NCBI GenBank assembly: GCA_046290225.1
Contig: JBKAGE010000078.1
Coordinates: 288,001 to 352,000, forward strand
Direction of reading: 5' to 3'
Length of the DNA stretch: 64,000 bases
DNA from: Bradymonadia bacterium
GTDB taxonomy: Bacteria; Myxococcota_A; Bradymonadia; UBA7976; UBA1532
Shown piece by piece: positions 18,402-27,574 of the stretch (its first letter is position 1; each line of letters opens with the position of its first letter). A program made the translations under genes and the position numbers. The notes beneath the pieces are model-generated. The model saw only the letters and a list, made by a program, of their open reading frames with translations, searched no databases and was not told the origin of the DNA.

Positions 18402-19676
18402 TCACACCTGCGCTCGGCGCCTGACATATGTGGCAAAGGCGACAGTGACGCTCAGCCCCAGGGCGGCGAACCCGGCGAGCACCCCGAAGAGGTATTGATG
18501 TCCCAGGGCCCCAGGGTAGGTGTCAGTGCACCAGCCCATCAGCGGCCCCATGAAGATGTCGGGGGTGAAGCCCACCAGCGACACCACACCCGCAGCCGTG
18601 CCGGTCAGTGCCGGCGCGATCCCAGCCTGCTCGAAGATGGCGAAGTAGAGCCCACGCAGGCCATAGATCGCAGCGCTGGTCACGGCGACGGTCATGAACA
18701 GGGTCCACGGCAAGTCGGGCTGCAACCAGCCCAGGGCGACGGACAAATCCCCGACGAGCATCACCGCGAAGGCTGTGAGAATGGCTGGGACAGCCCCGAC
18801 GCGATCACCCAGCCAACCTGCCCCCACGGCGGCGATGGGACGCACCCAGAAGGCCACTGTGCCCACCTCGGCAGCACGTACCTGATCGAAGCCGAAGACA
18901 TCCTGAGCATATAAACCCAGATCGTCGATGGCCTTGTAGCCCGTGTAGGCGGTCACCACGATCAGGCCCTGAAGCCAGACCGCAGGGTTGCGTACCACGA
19001 GCCCGACGTGACTCCACGAAAACCTGCCTTCGTCACGATCGCTGACCTCAGCATCAGGTACGAACACCCAGACCAGAGTCGCCGCCAGCGCGGCAGCCCC
19101 GATGAAGATCCAGATGATGGCTGTCAGAGCACTGGCCTTCTCGGCGGCGCTGGCGGTCTCGTGTGTCCCTGGCAGCAGGCTGGCGAAGGCAGCCACCGAG
19201 GCAGAAGCCAGTACCGCTGCCAGCAGCCCACGCCCGCCATCCAAGATGCCGAAGGCCCGACCCTGTCCGCCGTCCCCTCCCCACTCCCGGGTGGCCCGAA
19301 TCAACGCGGCCCAGAACAGCAGGATCGTGGTGCACCCCCAGATGCCATACAGCACTGTGAGTCCAGCCAGACTCGGCACCTGCACGAAGTACAACCCCCC
19401 GGCAGCGGTGGCCAGCAACGCGGCGGTCATCAGCTTGCGGGCCGAGAAGCGATCTGCCAGTGGTCCGCCCGGTACGTAGGCGATCATCGCCACGATGCCG
19501 TAGAGCGAGAAGGCGGTCCCGAGCTCGAGGTTGGTGATGCCGAACACATCCAGCAACGTGGGCCGGAAGATGCGCGCAATGATAAAAGGCAGACCGAAGA
19601 TGGCCTCCCCTGCGATGATCAAAGCGGCCATCTGGAGCGCGCGACGGGCGCCAGCGGACGATGTGTGTGTGGTCAA
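18402..19676 (-). CDS. MFS transporter
   Basis: About 12 hydrophobic segments; motif A GGPLADRFSARK and GWLGDRVG. Confidence 0.9.
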   Translation of the reverse strand: MTTHTSSAGARRALQMAALIIAGEAIFGLPFIIARIFRPTLLDVFGITNLELGTAFSLYGIVAMIAYVPGGPLADRFSARKLMTAALLATAAGGLYFVQVPSLAGLTVLYGIWGCTTILLFWAALIRATREWGGDGGQGRAFGILDGGRGLLAAVLASASVAAFASLLPGTHETASAAEKASALTAIIWIFIGAAALAATLVWVFVPDAEVSDRDEGRFSWSHVGLVVRNPAVWLQGLIVVTAYTGYKAIDDLGLYAQDVFGFDQVRAAEVGTVAFWVRPIAAVGAGWLGDRVGAVPAILTAFAVMLVGDLSVALGWLQPDLPWTLFMTVAVTSAAIYGLRGLYFAIFEQAGIAPALTGTAAGVVSLVGFTPDIFMGPLMGWCTDTYPGALGHQYLFGVLAGFAALGLSVTVAFATYVRRRAQV

Positions 19677-19711
19677 TGGATCACCGTTGGTGTGTTGGCA
19701 TAGCCTTGGAA

Positions 19712-20335
19712 TTAATGCTTTTCATAGAGGCCACCTACACAGCTCTTCCCACTGCTGGACTGGTGGTGTTTCTTGTAGAGCCCTCCGCAGCAGACCTCAC
19801 CTGTCGGGGACTCATAGTAGGCATCGTATAGCCCACCACAGGCGACCTTGCCGGTATTGGACACGTGGTACGACTTGAACAACCCCCCTGCACACACATT
19901 GCCGGTACTCGACACGTGATACGAGTCGTACTGGCCTCCACACGCCACCTGACCAGTACTTGATACGTGATACGACTTGAACAAGCCCCCTGCGCAGACC
20001 TCTCCCATGCTCGACACGTGGTACCCGTCATATTGACCACCACAGGCGACCTTGCCGGTACTGGACACATGGTAGGACGTGTAGAGCCCCCCTGCGCAGA
20101 CCTCTCCCGTACTCGACACATGATATGAGTCGTAGAGACCGCCGCAGCATACGAGGCCCTCTGAGGTCACGTGGTACGAGGTGAACTTTTTCCCGCAGAT
20201 GGGGATGCCCATGACCACCTGGTATGAGTCTTCGCTGGCCTGAGCCTCAGGCGGAGCAGAGCCATCAGTCCCAATGAAAAGTACAGCGGCCCCCAACAAC
20301 GCCGACACACACCCGAGCACTTTTGCGTTCGCCAT
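19712..20335 (-). CDS. Secreted protein built from nine 17-aa His/Cys/Gly repeats
   Basis: Signal-like MANAKVLGCVSALLGAAVLFIG, then repeats of SYHVSSTGxV(C/A)(A/C)GGxYx. The track ORF 19712..20878 is over-extended; an alternative start is 20371. Confidence 0.85.
   Translation of the reverse strand: MANAKVLGCVSALLGAAVLFIGTDGSAPPEAQASEDSYQVVMGIPICGKKFTSYHVTSEGLVCCGGLYDSYHVSSTGEVCAGGLYTSYHVSSTGKVACGGQYDGYHVSSMGEVCAGGLFKSYHVSSTGQVACGGQYDSYHVSSTGNVCAGGLFKSYHVSNTGKVACGGLYDAYYESPTGEVCCGGLYKKHHQSSSGKSCVGGLYEKH
19721..20179 (-). repeat. 51-bp coding tandem repeat (9 units)
   Basis: Units recur every 51 bp (e.g. GTACTCGACACGTG variants), diverging mainly at synonymous sites. Confidence 0.9.
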
Positions 20336-20363
20336 TCGACTCAGACCTTTCAACACAACACCA

Positions 20364-20897
20364 TCATTCATCAGGGTCAAAGACCTCTGAGGGCTGCAGG
20401 CCCCTGATGAAGGCCTCGAAAGACTCGGCCACGAAGGTGACCTTGAAGTTGAAGTCCTGATCCACGTGTACGACCTGGGGCTCGCCATCAGGACCACACT
20501 CACGATAGTCGAGGGCCAGCATGTCGTGCCCTGCAGATGGGCAGCTCGCGAAGTAGATCCCCAATGGGGGGTAATTCCACTCTTCGATCCAGAAGTGGCT
20601 GCCTGATGAACCTCCCAGCGAGTACATCTCCGTATCCCCGATGGCGAAGATGCCCTCGATGGCGATGTGGTCCTGCGCCCATGATGTCCGGCTCCCAGTC
20701 GCATGACGCCTGCGCTTCGGCATGCCCCCATTCTGACTTCGAGCGAGGGCGACGTATGCAGCAGGCAGACGGTAGCCCAAGAGGCGTTCCAATCTCTGTA
20801 CGGTCTCTTCAGTGGGCGCCGCTTCAGTGTAGTCAGATCGCGTCCAGTCTTCTGGGCTCCAGAAGTCAGCCAGCTCAAAGCCCTCGAATGTCGTCAT
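20364..20897 (-). CDS. SMI1/KNR4 (SUKH) family protein
   Basis: LERLLGYRLPAAYV..QNGG, CPSAGHDMLALDYRECGPDGEPQVVHVDQ and AESFEAFIRGL. Confidence 0.92.
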   Translation of the reverse strand: MTTFEGFELADFWSPEDWTRSDYTEAAPTEETVQRLERLLGYRLPAAYVALARSQNGGMPKRRRHATGSRTSWAQDHIAIEGIFAIGDTEMYSLGGSSGSHFWIEEWNYPPLGIYFASCPSAGHDMLALDYRECGPDGEPQVVHVDQDFNFKVTFVAESFEAFIRGLQPSEVFDPDE

Positions 20898-20989
20898 CCT
20901 TCACCTCATCGCCATGAAAAACTCATTGTGCGTCCATGTTGTATGCCGCCACCTCCAAACTCAACGTCAGCTGAAAAAGCGCCCCCACA

Positions 20990-21017
20990 TTTGCACAATT
21001 GCGCAAACATGCATAAT
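20990..21017 (+). promoter_or_regulatory. Palindromic operator overlapping the promoter of the ArsR-metallothionein operon
   Basis: TTTGCACAA/TTGCGCAAA (20990-21007, one mismatch) over a TTGCAC -35-like hexamer; CATAAT -10 at 21012-21017. Confidence 0.7.
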
Positions 21018-21025
21018 CTACCTCG

Positions 21026-21328
21026 GTGAACAACGAAGCCCTACGAGAACTGGCCGATCTCTTGAAGGCATTGGGTGAGGTCAACAGACTCTCGCTGGTG
21101 TGCAGGCTCTGCGAATGCAGATCGCCCCAAAACGCGATGTGTTTGTGTGACTGCTGCAATGTCGATGCCTCGGGTGTCTCCCGACACCTCAAGGTCCTTA
21201 CTCAGGAGGGCATCCTGAGTGTGGAGAAGCGTGGTCGAGAGAGAAACTACTCACTGAACCGGGCCTATGTGGCTCAACAATTACGCGTGCTCGCGGACAA
21301 GATCGAGCATGATACGGAGGCATCATGA
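21026..21328 (+). CDS. ArsR/SmtB metalloregulator with 7-Cys cluster
   Basis: LKALGEVNRL..SGVSRHLKVL..G..EKRGRERNYSL winged HTH; CRLCEC..CLCDCC. Confidence 0.92.
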   Translation: MNNEALRELADLLKALGEVNRLSLVCRLCECRSPQNAMCLCDCCNVDASGVSRHLKVLTQEGILSVEKRGRERNYSLNRAYVAQQLRVLADKIEHDTEAS

Positions 21329-21420
21329 GCAACGAAAAGTGTAAGTGTGATTGCAAAAAGGCCGACTGCTGCGTCAAGAAGACCTGTGCCTGCTGCAAAG
21401 AAAAGTGCTGTTGTCGCTGA
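21325..21420 (+). CDS. Metallothionein-like mini-protein (31 aa, 11 Cys)
   Basis: MSNEKCKCDCKKADCCVKKTCACCKEKCCCR; GGAGG RBS at 21316-21320; ATGA overlap with the ArsR stop; below the ORF-track length cutoff. Confidence 0.85.
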   Translation: MSNEKCKCDCKKADCCVKKTCACCKEKCCCR

Positions 21421-21510
21421 CAGAGAACCCTGTCCACACATCTCCCCTCACTGTCCCGATCCCTTTCGAAGACGTGCGGGCCCGGCTCAGCTACGAACCC
21501 TACCCTGTAC

Positions 21511-22449
21511 TCAGCTGCCCATCCGCGAGAAGAACTGCTCCATGACGGGCTTGGGCTGACGATCCACAGTGAACAGCCCCCAGTGCTTCTCGGGCTCGTT
21601 CGGATCAGGTGAGCCCTTCCACGGCTCGTCGAAGGCCTCGAAGACATAGATGCGCATGCCGCGGGCCTCACCCCATGCGGTGAGCTCGTCGTAGTACCGC
21701 CGTTGATGATCCACGTTGGCGTTGTGGGGCTCGATGCCCCGGCCATTGCTCCGAGTGGCCCAGCCCGCCTCGGTGATGGCGATCTCCACCCCAGGGTGAC
21801 GCTGCTCGATGCGGGTGATGTCATTGATGGTGACTTCCAGCGCCTCGTCGATGCTCTTGTACTCCCAGACTGGGTAGGTGTGCACCGAGATGAAGTCGAG
21901 CTCCGGCACCAGGGCATCGAGCTTGCCCATCCAGGGCACGTGGTTCTCACAGAAGGTCACCGGCAAGCCCGTGTCGGCCTTTGCTCGCCGCACCAGCTCG
22001 ATCATCCGCTCTACAGGTACGAGATGGCCCGTCCAGTCCACGGTGGCTTCGTTGCCCACAGCGATCGAAGTGATGATGTTCGGGTATCGTTGCACGAACT
22101 CTGCGAGCCGGCCGACCTCGGCGTCGTTGTTGCCGACGTTCACAGTGAGCTGGTCGTCGGTGTACCAGGCTCCCCATGGGCACCCCGGGTTGTTGATCTC
22201 CGCGCTGAGCCAGGCGCCGAGCAATACCTTCAGGTCGAGGCCGAGGCGCTGGATGGCAGAGAGGACGAGCTCTGCGTGAGGGCCAGTGTCGTACAGCCGT
22301 ATGTAGCGCCACCGTCGGGCGAGGATGTGCAAATCCTCTTCGATCTGCTCTGGCGACGGGAAGATGCCTGCGTCGGGGCTCTGGCCATCACGATAGCCGG
22401 AGTAACAGATGCCCTGATGGACAAGACGTTCGGGCAACTCAGCGTTCAA
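21511..22449 (-). CDS. GH17 beta-1,3-glucanase/glucosidase
   Basis: ICYSGYRDGQSP, IAVGNE, ITEAGW, FEAFDEPWK and EKHWGLF. Confidence 0.9.
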   Translation of the reverse strand: MNAELPERLVHQGICYSGYRDGQSPDAGIFPSPEQIEEDLHILARRWRYIRLYDTGPHAELVLSAIQRLGLDLKVLLGAWLSAEINNPGCPWGAWYTDDQLTVNVGNNDAEVGRLAEFVQRYPNIITSIAVGNEATVDWTGHLVPVERMIELVRRAKADTGLPVTFCENHVPWMGKLDALVPELDFISVHTYPVWEYKSIDEALEVTINDITRIEQRHPGVEIAITEAGWATRSNGRGIEPHNANVDHQRRYYDELTAWGEARGMRIYVFEAFDEPWKGSPDPNEPEKHWGLFTVDRQPKPVMEQFFSRMGS

Positions 22450-23356
22450 GTTTCAACCCTCCATCGGCATCCCACAAACCCCAAAACGCACCACAGTCCC
22501 CTTCGGGGCCCACTTTCCAGGCCTCGTCATAGGCCGAGAACCAGAACAACGGCAGCTCCTCGTCATCAGTCCACGCCAGGATGTTGAGCAGATACAACGC
22601 CATGTTGCGCAGCGAGGGCTCAGCGGGGCCATTGGCTTCGCCGGCGGTGGGCCACCCGGTCTCGGCGATGACGACGGGCTTGTCCCCCACTGCAGCTTGT
22701 ACGCGACGCACCATCTCCTGGGCGTAATTGACGGATCGCTCCAGGGGGACCTCCTCCCAGAACGGGTAGCAATTCACAGGGATGAAGTCGCAGGCTGCGG
22801 CGATGGCAGGGTGCGCCACGAAGACAAAGTAGGCATCGACATAGCCCACGGGTACCCCAGGTACGGCAGCGCGGACCTCCTCGATCATCTCGATGAGTCG
22901 GGCTTCTTCCATCTCGCCCCGGAGAATGACCTCGTTGCCCACGGCGATGAGATCAGCGTGCCCTGCCCGGGCCACCTCGATGACTGCCTCGATCTCCTTG
23001 CGGTTGCGGGCCTCGTCTTCTCCGATCCACGCGCCGACGAGGGTCTTGAGCCCATGCTGATGTGCCAGGCGCGCGCCGTGCTCGTTGCCATCGAGGCAGG
23101 AGAAAGTCCGGATCCACTTGGTGTAAGGCGCGATCCGCTCGAGGCGCCCCTGGACCTGCGCCTCGGACAACTGACTCAAAGCTTCTGGGGTCTGCTGGCC
23201 TTCGTAGGCGCTGAAGCTCACGCCATGCAGCCCGATGTCGAGGGCCTTGCGCAGCCGCCGCAGCAGCTCGTCGGTGGACAACTCGGTGAAGCTCAGCTCT
23301 GCGGAGGCCTTGAAACCTGCCAGCAGGTCCTTGCCCTTGATGTGCAGCTCGCCCAT
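22439..23356 (-). CDS. GH17 beta-1,3-glucanase/glucosidase
   Basis: WIRTFS, IAVGNE, NCYPFWE, IAETGWPT and FSAYDEAWK. Confidence 0.9.
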   Translation of the reverse strand: MGELHIKGKDLLAGFKASAELSFTELSTDELLRRLRKALDIGLHGVSFSAYEGQQTPEALSQLSEAQVQGRLERIAPYTKWIRTFSCLDGNEHGARLAHQHGLKTLVGAWIGEDEARNRKEIEAVIEVARAGHADLIAVGNEVILRGEMEEARLIEMIEEVRAAVPGVPVGYVDAYFVFVAHPAIAAACDFIPVNCYPFWEEVPLERSVNYAQEMVRRVQAAVGDKPVVIAETGWPTAGEANGPAEPSLRNMALYLLNILAWTDDEELPLFWFSAYDEAWKVGPEGDCGAFWGLWDADGGLKLER

Positions 23357-23383
23357 TGAAACTCCAAAGGTGGCAGATACCGC

Positions 23384-24847
23384 TCAGTCAGTGCCCAGGG
23401 TGAGGGTGAGCAGCGCGGAGGCAGGGCAACGCACCTGTGGCTCGCGCTCACTCCAGGCAATCGAGACGTTGATGGGATGATCGGTTTCGTTGAACAGATG
23501 GACGATCTGAGTGCCGTCGGGGTTGCGCAACGCCACGGCCCAGAGGCCCTCTGGGAGATCCCCCTCGAGCTCGAGCACCACAGCCCCCGGGCGGGTGTGT
23601 CGACTCACCTGCGCGAGGATGTGGAACAACGGGGTGATGTAGATTTCGCCCTCATCGACGAGGATGGGGGCGAGGCAGAAGTTCTCCACGTGGTTGGGCC
23701 CACCGCGGCGGGTCAGAGCGAGGTTCCAATCGATCCAACCTGAGAGCCAATGTGCCAGCCCGCCGACGATGTCTCGCGCGTACCTGAAGGCGGCGGCATA
23801 CGGAGGGTGATCCACTTCGGGACTCGGGGCCCAGTCCCAGCCCCAGTCCGTGGCCACTTTCTGCCAGTACCAGCTGTCGTCCCGCCACCATGGGGTTGCC
23901 GCACCGGGCCCTTTGTCCTCGCCCTTGATGAAGACGTTGTCGATGCACCCCTCGGTCTGAACGATGGGGTGATCGGGCCACGCGGCGTGCACCGCCTCAA
24001 GCTGATCTGCGTACACCCGAAAGGTGGAGTCGTACCAGTGCACGGCGATGCCCGTGGCGTGAGCATGCGCATCTTGATGGTTCAACACACCATCGGCGTA
24101 GGCCTTCACGCCCGCGCGATTCTGATCGTAGATGAGCACATCGAGTTCGAGATCCCGGGCCTCGAGCGCCCTGCCGAGCGCGGCCACGTATTCGGCCTGC
24201 TCGTTGGCGCTCATCTCCATGGATTCCCAGGAGCCGCCGTTGCCGTGGGGCTCGTTCACCGGGGTGAGGCCCCAGATGCTGACGCCCTCTTGCGCCATGG
24301 CCTCGACATATCGAGCGGTGTATCGGGCGAACGTGTCGTAGTGCTCGGGCAGCAGCTTGCCCCCACGTCGCGCTTGGGGATCGAAGTAGCGCCCGTTGTC
24401 CTTCATCCACGGCGGTGCCGTCCAGGGCGAGGCAATCAACCTGAACTGGGCGCCCTTCACTCGGTGAGCATCGAGCAACAGATCGAGGTGACCGTTCTCG
24501 CGATCGACATCGAGAGAGAAGCTCTCCAGCGAGGCATCCGGCTCGGGCACATAGGTGTAGCTGTGGGTGGAGAAGTCACAGCTGGCGATGTGGGTCCGCG
24601 CCATCGAGAAAGCCGCTTCGTCGGATGCGAATGCCATGGCCAGCACCCGGCTGCGGGTTTCTGGAGACAAGGTGGACAGGGACACGGCGGATGCCTGAGT
24701 CAGCGAGCTGCCGATGCCAATGATGGTCTGACGTTCACGATGCGGGTGAACCCTGAGGATGACTTCAGGTGACTCGTGAGGGATGAGATCGCCGATGGGT
24801 ACGACGCGTTGAGCGTCACCTGCGGCGGAGGTCAACGTTGCACGCAT
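23384..24847 (-). CDS. GH30 glycoside hydrolase (glucosylceramidase-like, probable beta-1,6-glucanase)
   Basis: RTHIASCDFS, ASPWTAPPWMK, PVNEP, HWY, QTEGC and WIDWNL..GGPNHV.NFC. Confidence 0.9.
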   Translation of the reverse strand: MRATLTSAAGDAQRVVPIGDLIPHESPEVILRVHPHRERQTIIGIGSSLTQASAVSLSTLSPETRSRVLAMAFASDEAAFSMARTHIASCDFSTHSYTYVPEPDASLESFSLDVDRENGHLDLLLDAHRVKGAQFRLIASPWTAPPWMKDNGRYFDPQARRGGKLLPEHYDTFARYTARYVEAMAQEGVSIWGLTPVNEPHGNGGSWESMEMSANEQAEYVAALGRALEARDLELDVLIYDQNRAGVKAYADGVLNHQDAHAHATGIAVHWYDSTFRVYADQLEAVHAAWPDHPIVQTEGCIDNVFIKGEDKGPGAATPWWRDDSWYWQKVATDWGWDWAPSPEVDHPPYAAAFRYARDIVGGLAHWLSGWIDWNLALTRRGGPNHVENFCLAPILVDEGEIYITPLFHILAQVSRHTRPGAVVLELEGDLPEGLWAVALRNPDGTQIVHLFNETDHPINVSIAWSEREPQVRCPASALLTLTLGTD

Positions 24848-24911
24848 TGTGTGAGACTAGCACATTTATGGGGGTGGCCAAGCGGACGATGATGCATGGA
24901 TCTTGGTGTTG

Positions 24912-25270
24912 TGGTGGTTTCGGGGGTCGCTCCGCTGGCAAGAGAGTTTCGGGCACGGGCACGGGCACGGGCACGGGCACGAGTTGATACATATCTGGAC
25001 CCGTAGCCCTGCATGGCTCCGCTCGTAGGTTGATGGTGGTGGAGGCGCTGCTCGGCCCCGCGTTCTTCTCAGTGGAGGCTCTGAACTCCATATCCCCAAG
25101 ACCTGAACTTTCAGGCCGTTCTCAAGCGTACCTTCTCAGCTTCAATCGCAACCCTCGCCCTGAATTCAGGATGGGCCACGGGTCCAGATATGTATCAACT
25201 CGTGCCCGTGCCCGTGCCCGTGCCCGTGCCCGAAACTCTCTTGCCAGCGGAGCGACCCCCGAAACCACCA
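24912..25270. repeat. 98-bp inverted-repeat (fold-back) element with (GGGCAC)5 in each arm
   Basis: Arms 24912-25009 and 25173-25270 are reverse complements with one mismatch; 163-bp spacer. Confidence 0.95.
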
Positions 25271-25304
25271 TCACGCATCGAACCCGATCCAGAAGACAAG
25301 GCCA

Positions 25305-26120
25305 TCACCGACCGCTCTTTTCTCGACCACAACGTTGCGCGCTGCGCTGCTTCAGCTCGGCATGATTCGGCAGGTACTTGGCATGCCGCACGATGACCTC
25401 GTGACTCAACTGCTCGAAATGAGCCTCGAAGATCGCGGCAGCGAACTCCGGGTGCTTTCTCGACGCATCAGCGAGCACCCAGCCAATCCCAGTCTGCACG
25501 AAGCGCTCTTCTGACGGCAGCAGACGTTGCACGAGATCAGCGATGACGTCGTGGTGCAGCCCCGACTTCCCTGCCTTCTTGAACGCCAGGATGGCGCAGC
25601 GCCTCTGCCAGACGGTCTCTGACTCTGCCCAGCCCACCAACCGGGGAATGAAGTCGGGCGTCTTCAAGGGCACCTCTTCAAGCACCCGCACGCACAGCCA
25701 GTCATTGGTCGACCAGTCGTGAATGTCTCCGGCGCCGAGAGCATCTTCGACCATCCCGAGCATGGCAGCGATCCTGTCCTCAGCGGTGACGTCAGGATCC
25801 TTTCGCTTGAGCCACTGCTTCAACCACAAGATGGCCGTGAGCTTGTCTTCAGCCATGGGCTGGGCAAGCCAATGTCGAATGTGACGCAGTTGCTCGTCAG
25901 CAGGCAGGCGATCTGCACCGCTCTGAGCGAAGACGCTCTTCAATGCAGTCTTCAGCTGAGGCGTCTTCACCCCCCGGTAGGTGATCACGCCTTTCAGGTA
26001 GCGCGTGAACCACTCTGCAGTCTCGGGCGTCGCAGCGGCCTCCAAGACCGACACGAGGATCGAGTGCAGCGCCTCTTCACCCAATGCATCAGAGTTGACC
26101 ACGCCTGTGGACTCGGTCAC
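25305..26120 (-). CDS. DNA alkylation repair protein (AlkD-like HEAT repeat)
   Basis: RYLKG..YRGVKTP, DWSTNDW, WAESETVWQRR and ERFVQTGIGWVL. GTG 26120 overlaps the transporter stop. Confidence 0.82.
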   Translation of the reverse strand: MTESTGVVNSDALGEEALHSILVSVLEAAATPETAEWFTRYLKGVITYRGVKTPQLKTALKSVFAQSGADRLPADEQLRHIRHWLAQPMAEDKLTAILWLKQWLKRKDPDVTAEDRIAAMLGMVEDALGAGDIHDWSTNDWLCVRVLEEVPLKTPDFIPRLVGWAESETVWQRRCAILAFKKAGKSGLHHDVIADLVQRLLPSEERFVQTGIGWVLADASRKHPEFAAAIFEAHFEQLSHEVIVRHAKYLPNHAELKQRSAQRCGREKSGR

Positions 26121-27574
26121 GTGGTGGCCACCTGGGCGGCATCGGCCGGCGTTGCGCCCTCTTCTGAGGTGTCCAGCTGAGCGCGGATCTCGTTCGCCTT
26201 CTCTTCGGTGAGCTTGTAGCCCCACATCACCCAAATGGCGATGAGGGTGCCGAAGATGGGCACCCCGGAGAAGAAGGCTCGCAGCCCAGTCATCGCCTCC
26301 GCGGTCTGGCTGGCGGCGCCGGGCTCGTAGCCTACGAACGACAAGATCAAACCGCTCATCAGGCCCGCCACAGCGAAGCCGAACTTCACCATCCACCAGT
26401 AGATGGCCCCAAAGATGCCTTCCCGGCGCAATCCGGAGTTCAGCTCGTCGAGATCGATGACATCTGCGGTCATGGACATCATCAGGGTGAACAGACCTCC
26501 GATCCCGAAGGAGAAGAACGGGAGGGCGAAGATGAACATGTACGGCTTGCCGGGGATGAACAGGAACCACAACATGATGTAGCCGATGATGGAGATGCCC
26601 TGGGACAACAAGAACGCTCGGCGCTTACCCAGCCTCTTCGACATCAGCGCCACGATGGGGATCACGACGAAGGTGGTGATCAGCGCGCCCACAGAGCCGA
26701 ACAAGGTGGCCCATACGCCCATCTCCCCAGCATCACCGGCGAACAGGTAGTGCAGGATGATGTAGAAGGAGAAGGCCGCCACAGTGTTGAAGGCGTTGAA
26801 CACGAAGAAGGTGGCCACGCACAAGCGACGGAACGGCACCAACTTGAAGGCCTCGCGAAACCCGCTGAAGATGCTGCCGAGGGACTGGCCGATGTTCTTG
26901 ATCTTGAGGGGCGCGTAGTCAGCGTCTTCGGTGGACTCGCTCTTAAGGAAGATGGCCGGTACGAGGGCACACACAGTGCATGCGAGGCCCACCCAGATCG
27001 CCAGCTCGCGCACTGCCGCATCGGGCGATTCGAACCACGCCTCGTCGTACATAACCACCCAGAACCACGGCGCGATCACCCACGCCCACTGCCCGATCCA
27101 CTGAGCCACAGCCATGATGCTGGTGCGCTCGTGGAAGTCGTTGCTCATCTCGTAGCCCATGGCCACGTACGGCACGCTGAAGATGGTGATGCCCAGGTAG
27201 AAGAAGATGGACCACACCAGGAAGTACACGAAGTTGTATTCCAAGCTGTTGTCACGACTGAGCTGCCACATGAACACGAAGGACAACCCAGTGAAGATGC
27301 CGCCGATGAAGACGTACTGTCTCCGCCGACCCCACTTCGACTTCGTGTTGTCCGAAATGAACCCCATCAACGGATCGGAGAGCGCGTCCAAGACTCGAGG
27401 CAAGAAGGCGAGCACCCCGAGCATCCACCCCGGAAACCCGAGGTTCTCGATGAGCACCACCATGAAGATGCCCAGCACGGCGGGGAACATCTGGTTGGCG
27501 AGCATGCCGACGCCAAAGGCGAGCTTCTGGCCGAAGGGGACCTTCTGAGTGGCCTGAGGAGAGTTCGTACTCAC
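26117..27574 (-). CDS. GPH/MFS sugar:cation symporter
   Basis: DALSDPLMGFISDNTKSKWGRRR, PYVAMGYEMS.DFHERT and ADVIDLDEL..G.RREG. Confidence 0.93.
   Translation of the reverse strand: MSTNSPQATQKVPFGQKLAFGVGMLANQMFPAVLGIFMVVLIENLGFPGWMLGVLAFLPRVLDALSDPLMGFISDNTKSKWGRRRQYVFIGGIFTGLSFVFMWQLSRDNSLEYNFVYFLVWSIFFYLGITIFSVPYVAMGYEMSNDFHERTSIMAVAQWIGQWAWVIAPWFWVVMYDEAWFESPDAAVRELAIWVGLACTVCALVPAIFLKSESTEDADYAPLKIKNIGQSLGSIFSGFREAFKLVPFRRLCVATFFVFNAFNTVAAFSFYIILHYLFAGDAGEMGVWATLFGSVGALITTFVVIPIVALMSKRLGKRRAFLLSQGISIIGYIMLWFLFIPGKPYMFIFALPFFSFGIGGLFTLMMSMTADVIDLDELNSGLRREGIFGAIYWWMVKFGFAVAGLMSGLILSFVGYEPGAASQTAEAMTGLRAFFSGVPIFGTLIAIWVMWGYKLTEEKANEIRAQLDTSEEGATPADAAQVATT

Follow-up and report, generated by a model that had tools for sequence, protein, structure and literature searches.

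A conserved bacterial cassette pairs an ArsR/SmtB-family regulator with a 31-residue, 11-cysteine peptide that is likely a metallothionein

Introduction

Is a 31-codon open reading frame (ORF) that overlaps the end of an ArsR/SmtB-family repressor gene a gene in its own right, and what would a peptide with 11 cysteines do for its host? The question is raised by the 64,000-nucleotide stretch of bacterial DNA analysed here (the window), in which an earlier note, made from the sequence alone, had pointed to such an ORF and suggested that it represents a metallothionein family missed by annotation. Few bacterial metallothionein types have been characterised (PMC7387436 and PMC13578184, in part), and a marine family independent of SmtA, if true, would alter the picture of which organisms store or detoxify zinc and cadmium at sea. 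A natural metal cluster of 30 residues would also be a simple system in which to study metal selectivity, and a small tag for capturing or sensing metals. The family is open to direct testing, as the peptide can be synthesised, the predicted operator is defined, and carriers are available in culture (Alteromonas sp. 5E99-2, Ningiella sp. W23 and cf. Phormidesmis LEGE 11477). Our reading, to which we assign a probability of roughly 0.6, is that the regulator and the peptide form a conserved cassette in which the peptide likely acts as a metal-inducible zinc/cadmium metallothionein.

A short gene under selection for cysteine

The ORF encodes 31 residues, including 11 Cys and 8 Lys and neither His nor aromatic residues, with the cysteines spaced C-x-C-x-C-x4-CC-x4-C-x-CC-x3-CCC. 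This composition, the CxCxC, CC, CxCC and CCC motifs, the GGAGG ribosome-binding site and the ATGA overlap with the arsR stop had been described in the earlier note and are all borne out, with GGAGG placed 4 nt 5′ of the peptide ATG and the overlapped stop belonging to a 100-aa ORF (Table 1). With a Cys fraction of 0.35, the ORF ranks at the top of the 75,204 ORFs of 20-80 aa in the whole genome, and its Cys pattern occurs in 0 of 100 shuffles of the window. In 49 of 51 loci the peptide gene starts at position -4, counted from the arsR stop, and in the other two at +8. Across 46 distinct peptide cores all 11 Cys are invariant, and the mismatch rates against the window gene at codon positions 1, 2 and 3 are 0.17, 0.21 and 0.55; among 495 Cys codons, 188 show synonymous changes and none a change to another residue.

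Table 1. Features of the cassette, with positions counted from the first nucleotide of the window.
Feature	Position	Strand	Remarks
Operator palindrome TTTGCACAATTGCGCAAA	20990-21007	.	Core TTGC-N8-GCAA at 20991-21006; overlaps the -35 element; predicted ArsR-dimer site
Predicted sigma-70 promoter	20991-21019	+	-35 TTGCAC at 20991-20996, 17-nt spacer, -10 TAATCT at 21014-21019; ends 6 nt before the GTG start; read from sequence
ArsR/SmtB-family winged-helix repressor gene (arsR), 100 aa	21026-21328	+	Cys29, 31, 39, 41, 43 and 44 conserved; lacks the alpha5 His site
Shine-Dalgarno (SD) sequence GGAGG of the peptide gene	21316-21320	+	Within the final arsR codons; GGAG/GAGG-type in nearly all relatives
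Peptide gene, 31 aa	21325-21420	+	Start overlaps the arsR stop (ATGA, 21325-21328); predicted single-domain metallothionein

After identical peptides were collapsed, 137 distinct sequences remained, drawn from a repressor-first and a peptide-first set that overlap. The family spans 29-38 aa (median 31) with about 35% Cys, and His and aromatic residues occur in 7 and 2 of the 137 peptides, respectively. The lysine-richness remarked on in the earlier note holds for the window peptide and fails as a family trait, with the net charge of the 137 peptides running from -7 to +6. An AlphaFold2 (AF2) model of the window peptide (pLDDT 78, pTM 0.34) contains a single 4-residue helix.

Public protein collections scarcely record these peptides. 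None of nine checked was found in a collection of 15 billion proteins, and a profile search of 5.8 billion proteins returned 13 member clusters, all lacking both a Pfam family and a name and with no named member in the ten examined, in agreement with the claim that annotation misses the peptide. The first of these results is also what one would expect were the ORF not translated at all. That explanation is barely credible in view of the codon-level selection, the conserved SD sequence and start, frames that stay open in 104 of 105 loci, stand-alone copies with an SD sequence of their own, and the gene calls contained in the 13 protein clusters. On sequence evidence, we regard it as confirmed that the 31-codon ORF is a real gene under selection on all 11 Cys.

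The repressor and its putative sensor site

The 100-aa ORF scores above the NCBIfam cut-off for ArsR/SmtB proteins (NF033788, 59 bits versus 55) and slightly below that of Pfam HTH_5 (20.1 versus 22), and its AF2 model (pLDDT 88) adopts the ArsR fold; the winged-helix order alpha1-alpha2-alpha3-alpha4-beta1-beta2-alpha5 together with the family HMM places it in the ArsR/SmtB family. Cassette repressors from different phyla are 57-80% identical to that of the window and group together as a single clade in a quick tree (SH-aLRT 98), in which the window repressor clusters with Myxococcota-labelled homologues. Cys29, Cys39, Cys41 and Cys44 are present in all 73 aligned repressors, Cys43 in 72 and Cys31 in 70.

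These cysteines were compared with the alpha5, alpha3N and As(III) types of sensing-site motif compiled for ArsR proteins (PMC11672702, in part). The alpha5 zinc-sensor motif DxHx10Hx2(H/E) is absent, with no conserved His past His54 in the 73 repressors; for the alpha3N type, no N-terminal Cys occurs among the common residues of the first 25 alignment columns; and there is no conserved C-terminal CC of the CCx5C kind. The As(III) motifs C-(V/A)-C and CCx5C are absent as written, and C-L-C-x-C-C is present instead. The closest solved structure in a pairwise search is CadC, a Cd/Pb/Zn sensor (E 1e-7), whose LCVCD aligns with the repressor's MCLCD by means of two compensating gaps. A gap-free profile alignment instead matches Asn36-Ala37-Met38 with the CVC of a CadC-type protein, so that CLC falls three residues later. 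Because the register of CLC is ambiguous between the two alignments, the sensor site is a novel one or else a displaced version of the alpha3 site, and an assignment of MCLCDCC as a canonical arsenite site was dropped given this disagreement. As aligned, the six-Cys site appears to match none of the motifs in the sections of PMC11672702 covered here, and the repressor would represent an ArsR sensing site outside that set. By itself the site leaves the metal unnamed, and Cu(I), As(III) or oxidants are possible with all-Cys sites. A distant ArsR group (P0131-P0155 and L006), at about 40-45% identity, retains the CC before alpha4; in L006 (1400-1780) the same operator core occurs, and a membrane protein gene comes next instead of the peptide.

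Operator, promoter and transcription

The near-perfect palindrome that the earlier note placed over the promoter is present and conserved in relatives. Of 123 promoters, 122 contain its core if one mismatch is allowed, compared with 2-11 in shuffles, and 110 contain it exactly, compared with 0-1 in shuffles. In Myxococcota-type promoters, including that of the window, TTGC-N8-GCAA overlaps the -35 element, and in most others it fills the spacer. A promoter search returned a site near-identical to the one in Table 1 (TTTGCA/16/CATAAT), the sole sigma-70-like site in 20400-22000, which is not significant alone since 0.5 such sites are expected by chance in this interval. An SD-like 4-mer precedes arsR in 0 of 72 loci, versus 65 of 72 for the peptide gene, which leads to the prediction of a leaderless, weakly translated arsR. 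Four studies contributed RNA contigs that map to the cassette of a relative (L058), one of 537 nt covering both genes; these contigs lend weak support to transcription, as the runs were selected with this stretch and contigs give neither strand nor level. The flanks of L058 have no such contigs, which we do not read as a sign of where transcripts end. No Rfam family was found in 19500-23000, and the sole terminator-like site near the cassette lies within arsR. A loose operator scan of the genome gave 14 strand matches and no clear second member of a regulon.

Distribution of the cassette

The link between the two genes was followed from either side. A repressor-first set comprised 54 metagenome loci: 48 close homologues whose 3′ end is complete, 4 loci truncated at a contig end and 2 distant homologues. 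Behind close ArsR homologues, where the earlier note would have a Cys-rich small ORF conserved, one was found in 51 of 51 loci (the 48 metagenome loci, the window and two genomes of the same family); the two distant repressors (33-39% identity) lack the peptide. A peptide-first scan of 185,579 GTDB species representatives with the exact Cys-spacing pattern yielded 105 loci, a lower bound because an exact pattern is blind to spacing variants; one of these frames carries an in-frame stop. By their records the loci fall in 7 phyla (Pseudomonadota, Cyanobacteria, Planctomycetota, Myxococcota, Nitrospinota, Bdellovibrionota and Hydrogenedentota). A phylum scan gave 7 matches, 2 of which look like chance. 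Immediately 5′ of the peptide gene, 95 of the 105 loci have an ArsR of the same subfamily and 7 do not; the other 3 have too little upstream DNA. The named carrier lineages are ones that we take to be marine. Many carrier records give no habitat, and the 20 rows of the RNA search are marine, seawater or aquatic. Overall, the peptide gene occurs in roughly one hundred bacterial species, most of them marine, and also in phages from the sea.

Carriers are scattered within groups: they make up 3 of 31 genomes in the window's own order, 2 of 301 in a sample of the Alteromonas family, 16 of 151 in one cyanobacterial order and 7 of 251 in the Methylophilaceae, all seven being genomes of 1.1-1.3 Mb. 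In the quick repressor tree the phyla are interleaved, with Hydrogenovibrio among cyanobacteria and Planctomycetota in three places. Cassette GC follows host GC (r 0.90, 68 loci); the window cassette has about 54% GC versus 64% for its genome. Patchy carriage, interleaved phyla and matching GC fit either old horizontal spread or patchy loss. No close plasmid copy was found, the best reaching 42%, and general integration at tRNA or tmRNA genes was rejected as an RNA gene occurs in just 5 of 60 loci.

The peptide may also be lost. Among the 16 repressors of the cyanobacterial order, 13 are followed by a full peptide, one by a truncated one and one by none, and one is cut off. The peptide is truncated to 8 Cys in L331, and in L334 a cobalamin riboswitch, encoded on the opposite strand, stands in place of the peptide gene; Rfam searches of 32 loci gave this one kind of hit only, a single cobalamin riboswitch beside an ArsR that has lost its peptide. 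In L208, which also has no repressor, the peptide gene bears an in-frame stop. One ArsR without a peptide and two broken copies imply that the peptide is dispensable. A 132-aa in-frame fusion of repressor and peptide (P0126) occurs on one 747-nt contig and is either natural read-through or a sequencing error; a protein search for the fusion region gave no candidate.

Copies without a repressor

Copies of the streamlined Methylophilaceae type (L201, L254, L287, L291 and L301) have no repressor. Three of them sit after a tmRNA-like sequence, and four share an upstream element centred on TTGAC, which may be a promoter or the site of another regulator. Five T4-like marine phage contigs (L346, around 1500-1590, and L347, L348, L350 and L353) carry a stand-alone 10-Cys variant with its own SD sequence, in three cases directly downstream of a NifU/IscU auxiliary gene. 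On a myovirus-like contig (L352), an 11-Cys variant lies among tail genes, between those for the tail tube and the baseplate. These phage copies were found only by relaxed 8-Cys patterns, and in one such search 4 of 10 matches were chance. Of the other viral searches, the tightened 11-Cys pattern gave 0 loci and tblastn-confirmed searches with peptide and repressor alignments gave none; a scan with the bare Cys pattern was discarded, since all 80 translated of its at least 121 matches were antisense reads of simple repeats.

Genomic neighbourhood

The cassette of the window is flanked by genes that are not metal genes, encoding an SMI1/KNR4 protein and, on the opposite strand, GH17 glucanases. 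A run of glycan-use genes converges on the cassette (21511-27574, minus strand), with two GH17 genes, a glycoside-hydrolase-like ORF and a sugar-transporter-like ORF. At 19712-20320 (minus strand), a predicted secreted protein contains about ten 15-residue repeats with Cys, His and Tyr and has no convincing family match. Two copies of a repeat element with a hexamer run, which reads PVPVPV or RARARA, lie at 24900-25290, and a similar element is found upstream of the genome's only P-type ATPase. In this 8.6-Mb genome (99% complete) there is no match to SmtA (PF02069; the Synechococcus control was positive), to a CDF exporter, though 14 of 14 control genomes have one, or to Acr3. Besides the one P-type ATPase, two CzcA/CusA-type pumps score above the cut-off.

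In relatives, the commonest neighbour cluster after the repressor is a COG0523 GTPase, one of which is ZigA above the cut-off. Other recurring neighbours are a Pyr_redox_3 flavoprotein, ZnuA/AztC, DUF1826, a ZnuD-like receptor, HisI and HupE/UreJ. COG0523 and HupE proteins can serve cobalt or nickel. At least one of COG0523/ZigA, ZnuA/AztC, DUF1826 or the ZnuD-like receptor lies within 5 kb at 18 of 80 long-flank loci, compared with 0.6% of random 10-kb windows of this genome, an enrichment to be read with the caveats that these very neighbourhoods supplied the queries, that a single genome gave the background and that related loci are not independent. These zinc-gene neighbours span five phyla in differing order and orientation, with COG0523 alone in 12 of the 80 loci. 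Adding HisI, HupE and Pyr_redox_3 queries raises the loci with a match to 26 of 80, leaving 54 with none, the window among them. Queries for arsC match 1 of the 80 genome loci, in one lineage only, and a P-type ATPase query matches neither the 80 nor the metagenome loci. Annotation of 23 of the 45 recurring clusters listed revealed no mer, cad, czc, copper or ars gene, acr3 and arsM included.

A FeoB-like gene neighbours the cassette at 6 of 80 loci, all within one cyanobacterial group. The cyanobacterial Zur box that we used also resembles Fur boxes. Boxes matching its consensus (PMC9337993, in part) occur at 9 of 10 long-flank cyanobacterial loci; a gammaproteobacterial Zur box was not enriched (2 loci versus 0-2 in shuffles). 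Three further arrangements were seen at particular loci. Beside cyanobacterial cassettes (L216, L221, L223, L226, L260 and L261), an unannotated gene of about 115 aa and a FeoB-like gene each stand behind a Fur/Zur-type box. In three gammaproteobacterial loci (L220, L243 and L275), a conserved, co-oriented TonB-dependent receptor gene begins about 470 nt past the peptide start, and in one Myxococcota lineage (L273, L029 and L032) the opposite strand carries arsC and an aquaporin-like gene 0.8-2 kb downstream.

Proposed function and alternatives

We propose that a metal-free repressor dimer would sit on TTGC-N8-GCAA and block its own leaderless promoter. Rising cytosolic Zn(II) or Cd(II) would bind the conserved cysteines of alpha2/alpha3 and cause the repressor to leave the DNA, and the resulting bicistronic mRNA would yield little repressor, which has no SD sequence, and much peptide, which has a strong one. 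The peptide may enclose some four M(II) ions in a single cluster with thiolate ligands only (M4Cys11), a number suggested by analogy with the 11/12-Cys domains that bind four M(II) ions and arose repeatedly in marine animals (PMC8476144, in part). In a cell geared to take up zinc with high affinity, the peptide would soak up pulses of zinc or stray cadmium, and it could store zinc for later; in marine cyanobacteria, sequestration is favoured over efflux (PMC3323870 and PMC9337993, in part). The choice of zinc and cadmium is favoured by the zinc-gene neighbours, the cyanobacterial Zur-type boxes, CadC as the best structure match, and a window genome that lacks SmtA and a CDF exporter. Counting against it are the 54 loci without a zinc-query neighbour and the non-metal neighbours of the window itself, a repressor with neither the alpha5 His site of proven zinc sensors nor the N-terminal Cys of alpha3N, the FeoB-like neighbours and Fur-like boxes, and the two CzcA/CusA-type pumps in the genome.

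All-Cys ligand sets suit Cu(I). A Cu(I)-sensing repressor could govern a copper(I)/silver(I) thionein with a Cu-thiolate cluster, like MymT or BxmR-BmtA, and the Cys-site ArsR over a metallothionein in Oscillatoria answers Cu/Ag as well as Zn/Cd (PMC11672702, in part). Such a role is unlikely when no P-type ATPase accompanies any genome or metagenome locus and when the annotated recurring neighbours include no copper gene, those that recur being zinc-limitation genes. An arsenite/antimonite sponge, with an As(III)-sensing repressor and a peptide holding about three As(III), would replace efflux in phosphate-poor water. As(III)-sensing ArsRs do use three Cys at independently evolved places (PMC11672702, in part), one lineage has its arsC and aquaporin-like gene downstream, and Acr3 has no match in the window genome; the solitary arsC locus, the lack of ars genes among the annotated clusters, the absence of the As(III) motifs in their written form and a fixed 11-Cys spacing that would suit a folded cluster better than loose tri-thiol sites make it improbable.

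We give a low probability to a redox or Fe-S module, in which the repressor would sense peroxide or persulfide via the vicinal Cys43-Cys44 and the peptide would be a thiol buffer or a carrier of Fe or Fe-S. RexT, which detects H2O2 through vicinal alpha3 Cys (PMC11672702, in part), offers a precedent, and the NifU/IscU gene upstream of three phage copies and the FeoB-like gene and Fur-like boxes around cyanobacterial copies point the same way. Yet RexT is a distant match to the repressor (E 0.04), the FeoB-like link is confined to its one cyanobacterial group, and no thioredoxin, peroxidase or sulfur-detoxification gene appears among the annotated recurring clusters. Nor does a broad scavenger of soft metals (Hg, Pb, Cd, Co, Ni) unconnected with zinc economy, its zinc neighbours reflecting shared metal islands, seem other than very unlikely: the 54 of 80 loci without a zinc-query neighbour, the patchy distribution (2/301, 16/151 and 7/251 genomes) and the cobalamin riboswitch adjoining an ArsR that lost its peptide are consistent with it, but the annotated clusters hold no mer, cad or czc gene and the riboswitch is the only one in 32 loci. 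Building on the zinc/cadmium metallothionein reading, a wider proposal can be put forward tentatively, at a little short of even odds. It holds that the peptide is a His-free, single-cluster zinc bank and a third unrelated bacterial metallothionein family, convergent with the animal 11-Cys domain, that moves among at least seven marine phyla with a new six-Cys ArsR sensor, goes regulator-free in streamlined Methylophilaceae, serves T4-like marine phages as an auxiliary metal-handling gene, and would form an overlooked part of ocean zinc and cadmium cycling.

Comparison with known systems

Metallothioneins are nearly devoid of aromatic residues and have little regular secondary structure, and both hold for the family here, with aromatics in 2 of 137 peptides and one 4-residue helix in the AF2 model. 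Its 29-38 residues, 11 invariant Cys and CxCxC, CC, CxCC and CCC motifs also agree with the metallothionein definition of PMC8476144 (in part). No described family matches in Pfam, NCBIfam, PHROG or PDB sequence searches, in line with the earlier note's suggestion of a possibly new family. For Pfam, HMM searches with 100 members gave no metallothionein match, short Cys-rich queries having low power, and PF02069 (SmtA/BmtA) matched 0 of the 100 members and nothing in five carrier genomes; the only family matched was LSR (36 of 100 members, best E 6e-4), which we read as Cys bias. Fold searches with the peptide returned none, a 31-residue apo model saying little, and the highest-scoring named cluster in the Atlas (0.77), a metallothionein of PF02067, is a lead only, all Atlas matches being at or below 0.80. 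The literature covered, with subscription reviews and small-protein catalogues outside the search, held no description of this family, and none of five Cys motifs occurs in the text of the four supplements of DeepMetagenome (PMC11705764, in part).

The resemblance to eukaryotic metallothioneins drawn in the earlier note stands for composition and not for homology, as no Pfam metallothionein, PDB sequence or fold match was found. Like the vertebrate alpha domain and the tunicate 12-Cys Cd-thioneins, the peptide has about 30 residues, 11-12 Cys and CxC, CC and CCC motifs, and such domains bind four Zn/Cd (PMC8476144, in part); the likeness to animal 11/12-Cys domains is likely convergent. In its layout the cassette is closest in kind to SmtB-SmtA of Synechococcus elongatus and BxmR-BmtA of Oscillatoria brevis, where an ArsR/SmtB repressor and a small Cys-rich gene share one operator-promoter, with metal de-repression predicted here. 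The differences lie in both partners. SmtA-type proteins have about 60 aa and about 16% Cys (PMC13578184, in part), roughly twice the length and half the Cys content of the cassette peptides; a Pseudomonas SmtA relative uses a Cys9His cluster, whereas His is rare here, and smtB is divergent, whereas the cassette genes are co-oriented and coupled (PMC7387436, in part). Unlike SmtB and BxmR, the cassette repressor lacks the alpha5 and alpha3N sites. It resembles CadC/AztR (alpha3N) and As(III) ArsR proteins in having putative Cys ligands in or near helix alpha3, and differs from CadC/AztR in lacking the N-terminal Cys and in having the extra Cys29/31 and Cys43/44.

The Zur-activated BmtA of marine Synechococcus WH8102 likewise ties a metallothionein to the regulation of zinc uptake, with zinc banking proposed (PMC9337993, in part); that BmtA belongs to another protein family and is activated by Zur, whereas repression by a dedicated ArsR is predicted here. 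MymT of Mycobacterium and the Pseudomonas metallothioneins are, like the cassette peptide, small and long-overlooked bacterial proteins, the former a copper protein and the latter His-rich and with no metal regulator (PMC7387436, in part). Set beside these systems, the cassette peptide appears to represent a genuine and so far undescribed family, and the system to which it belongs is of a familiar kind.
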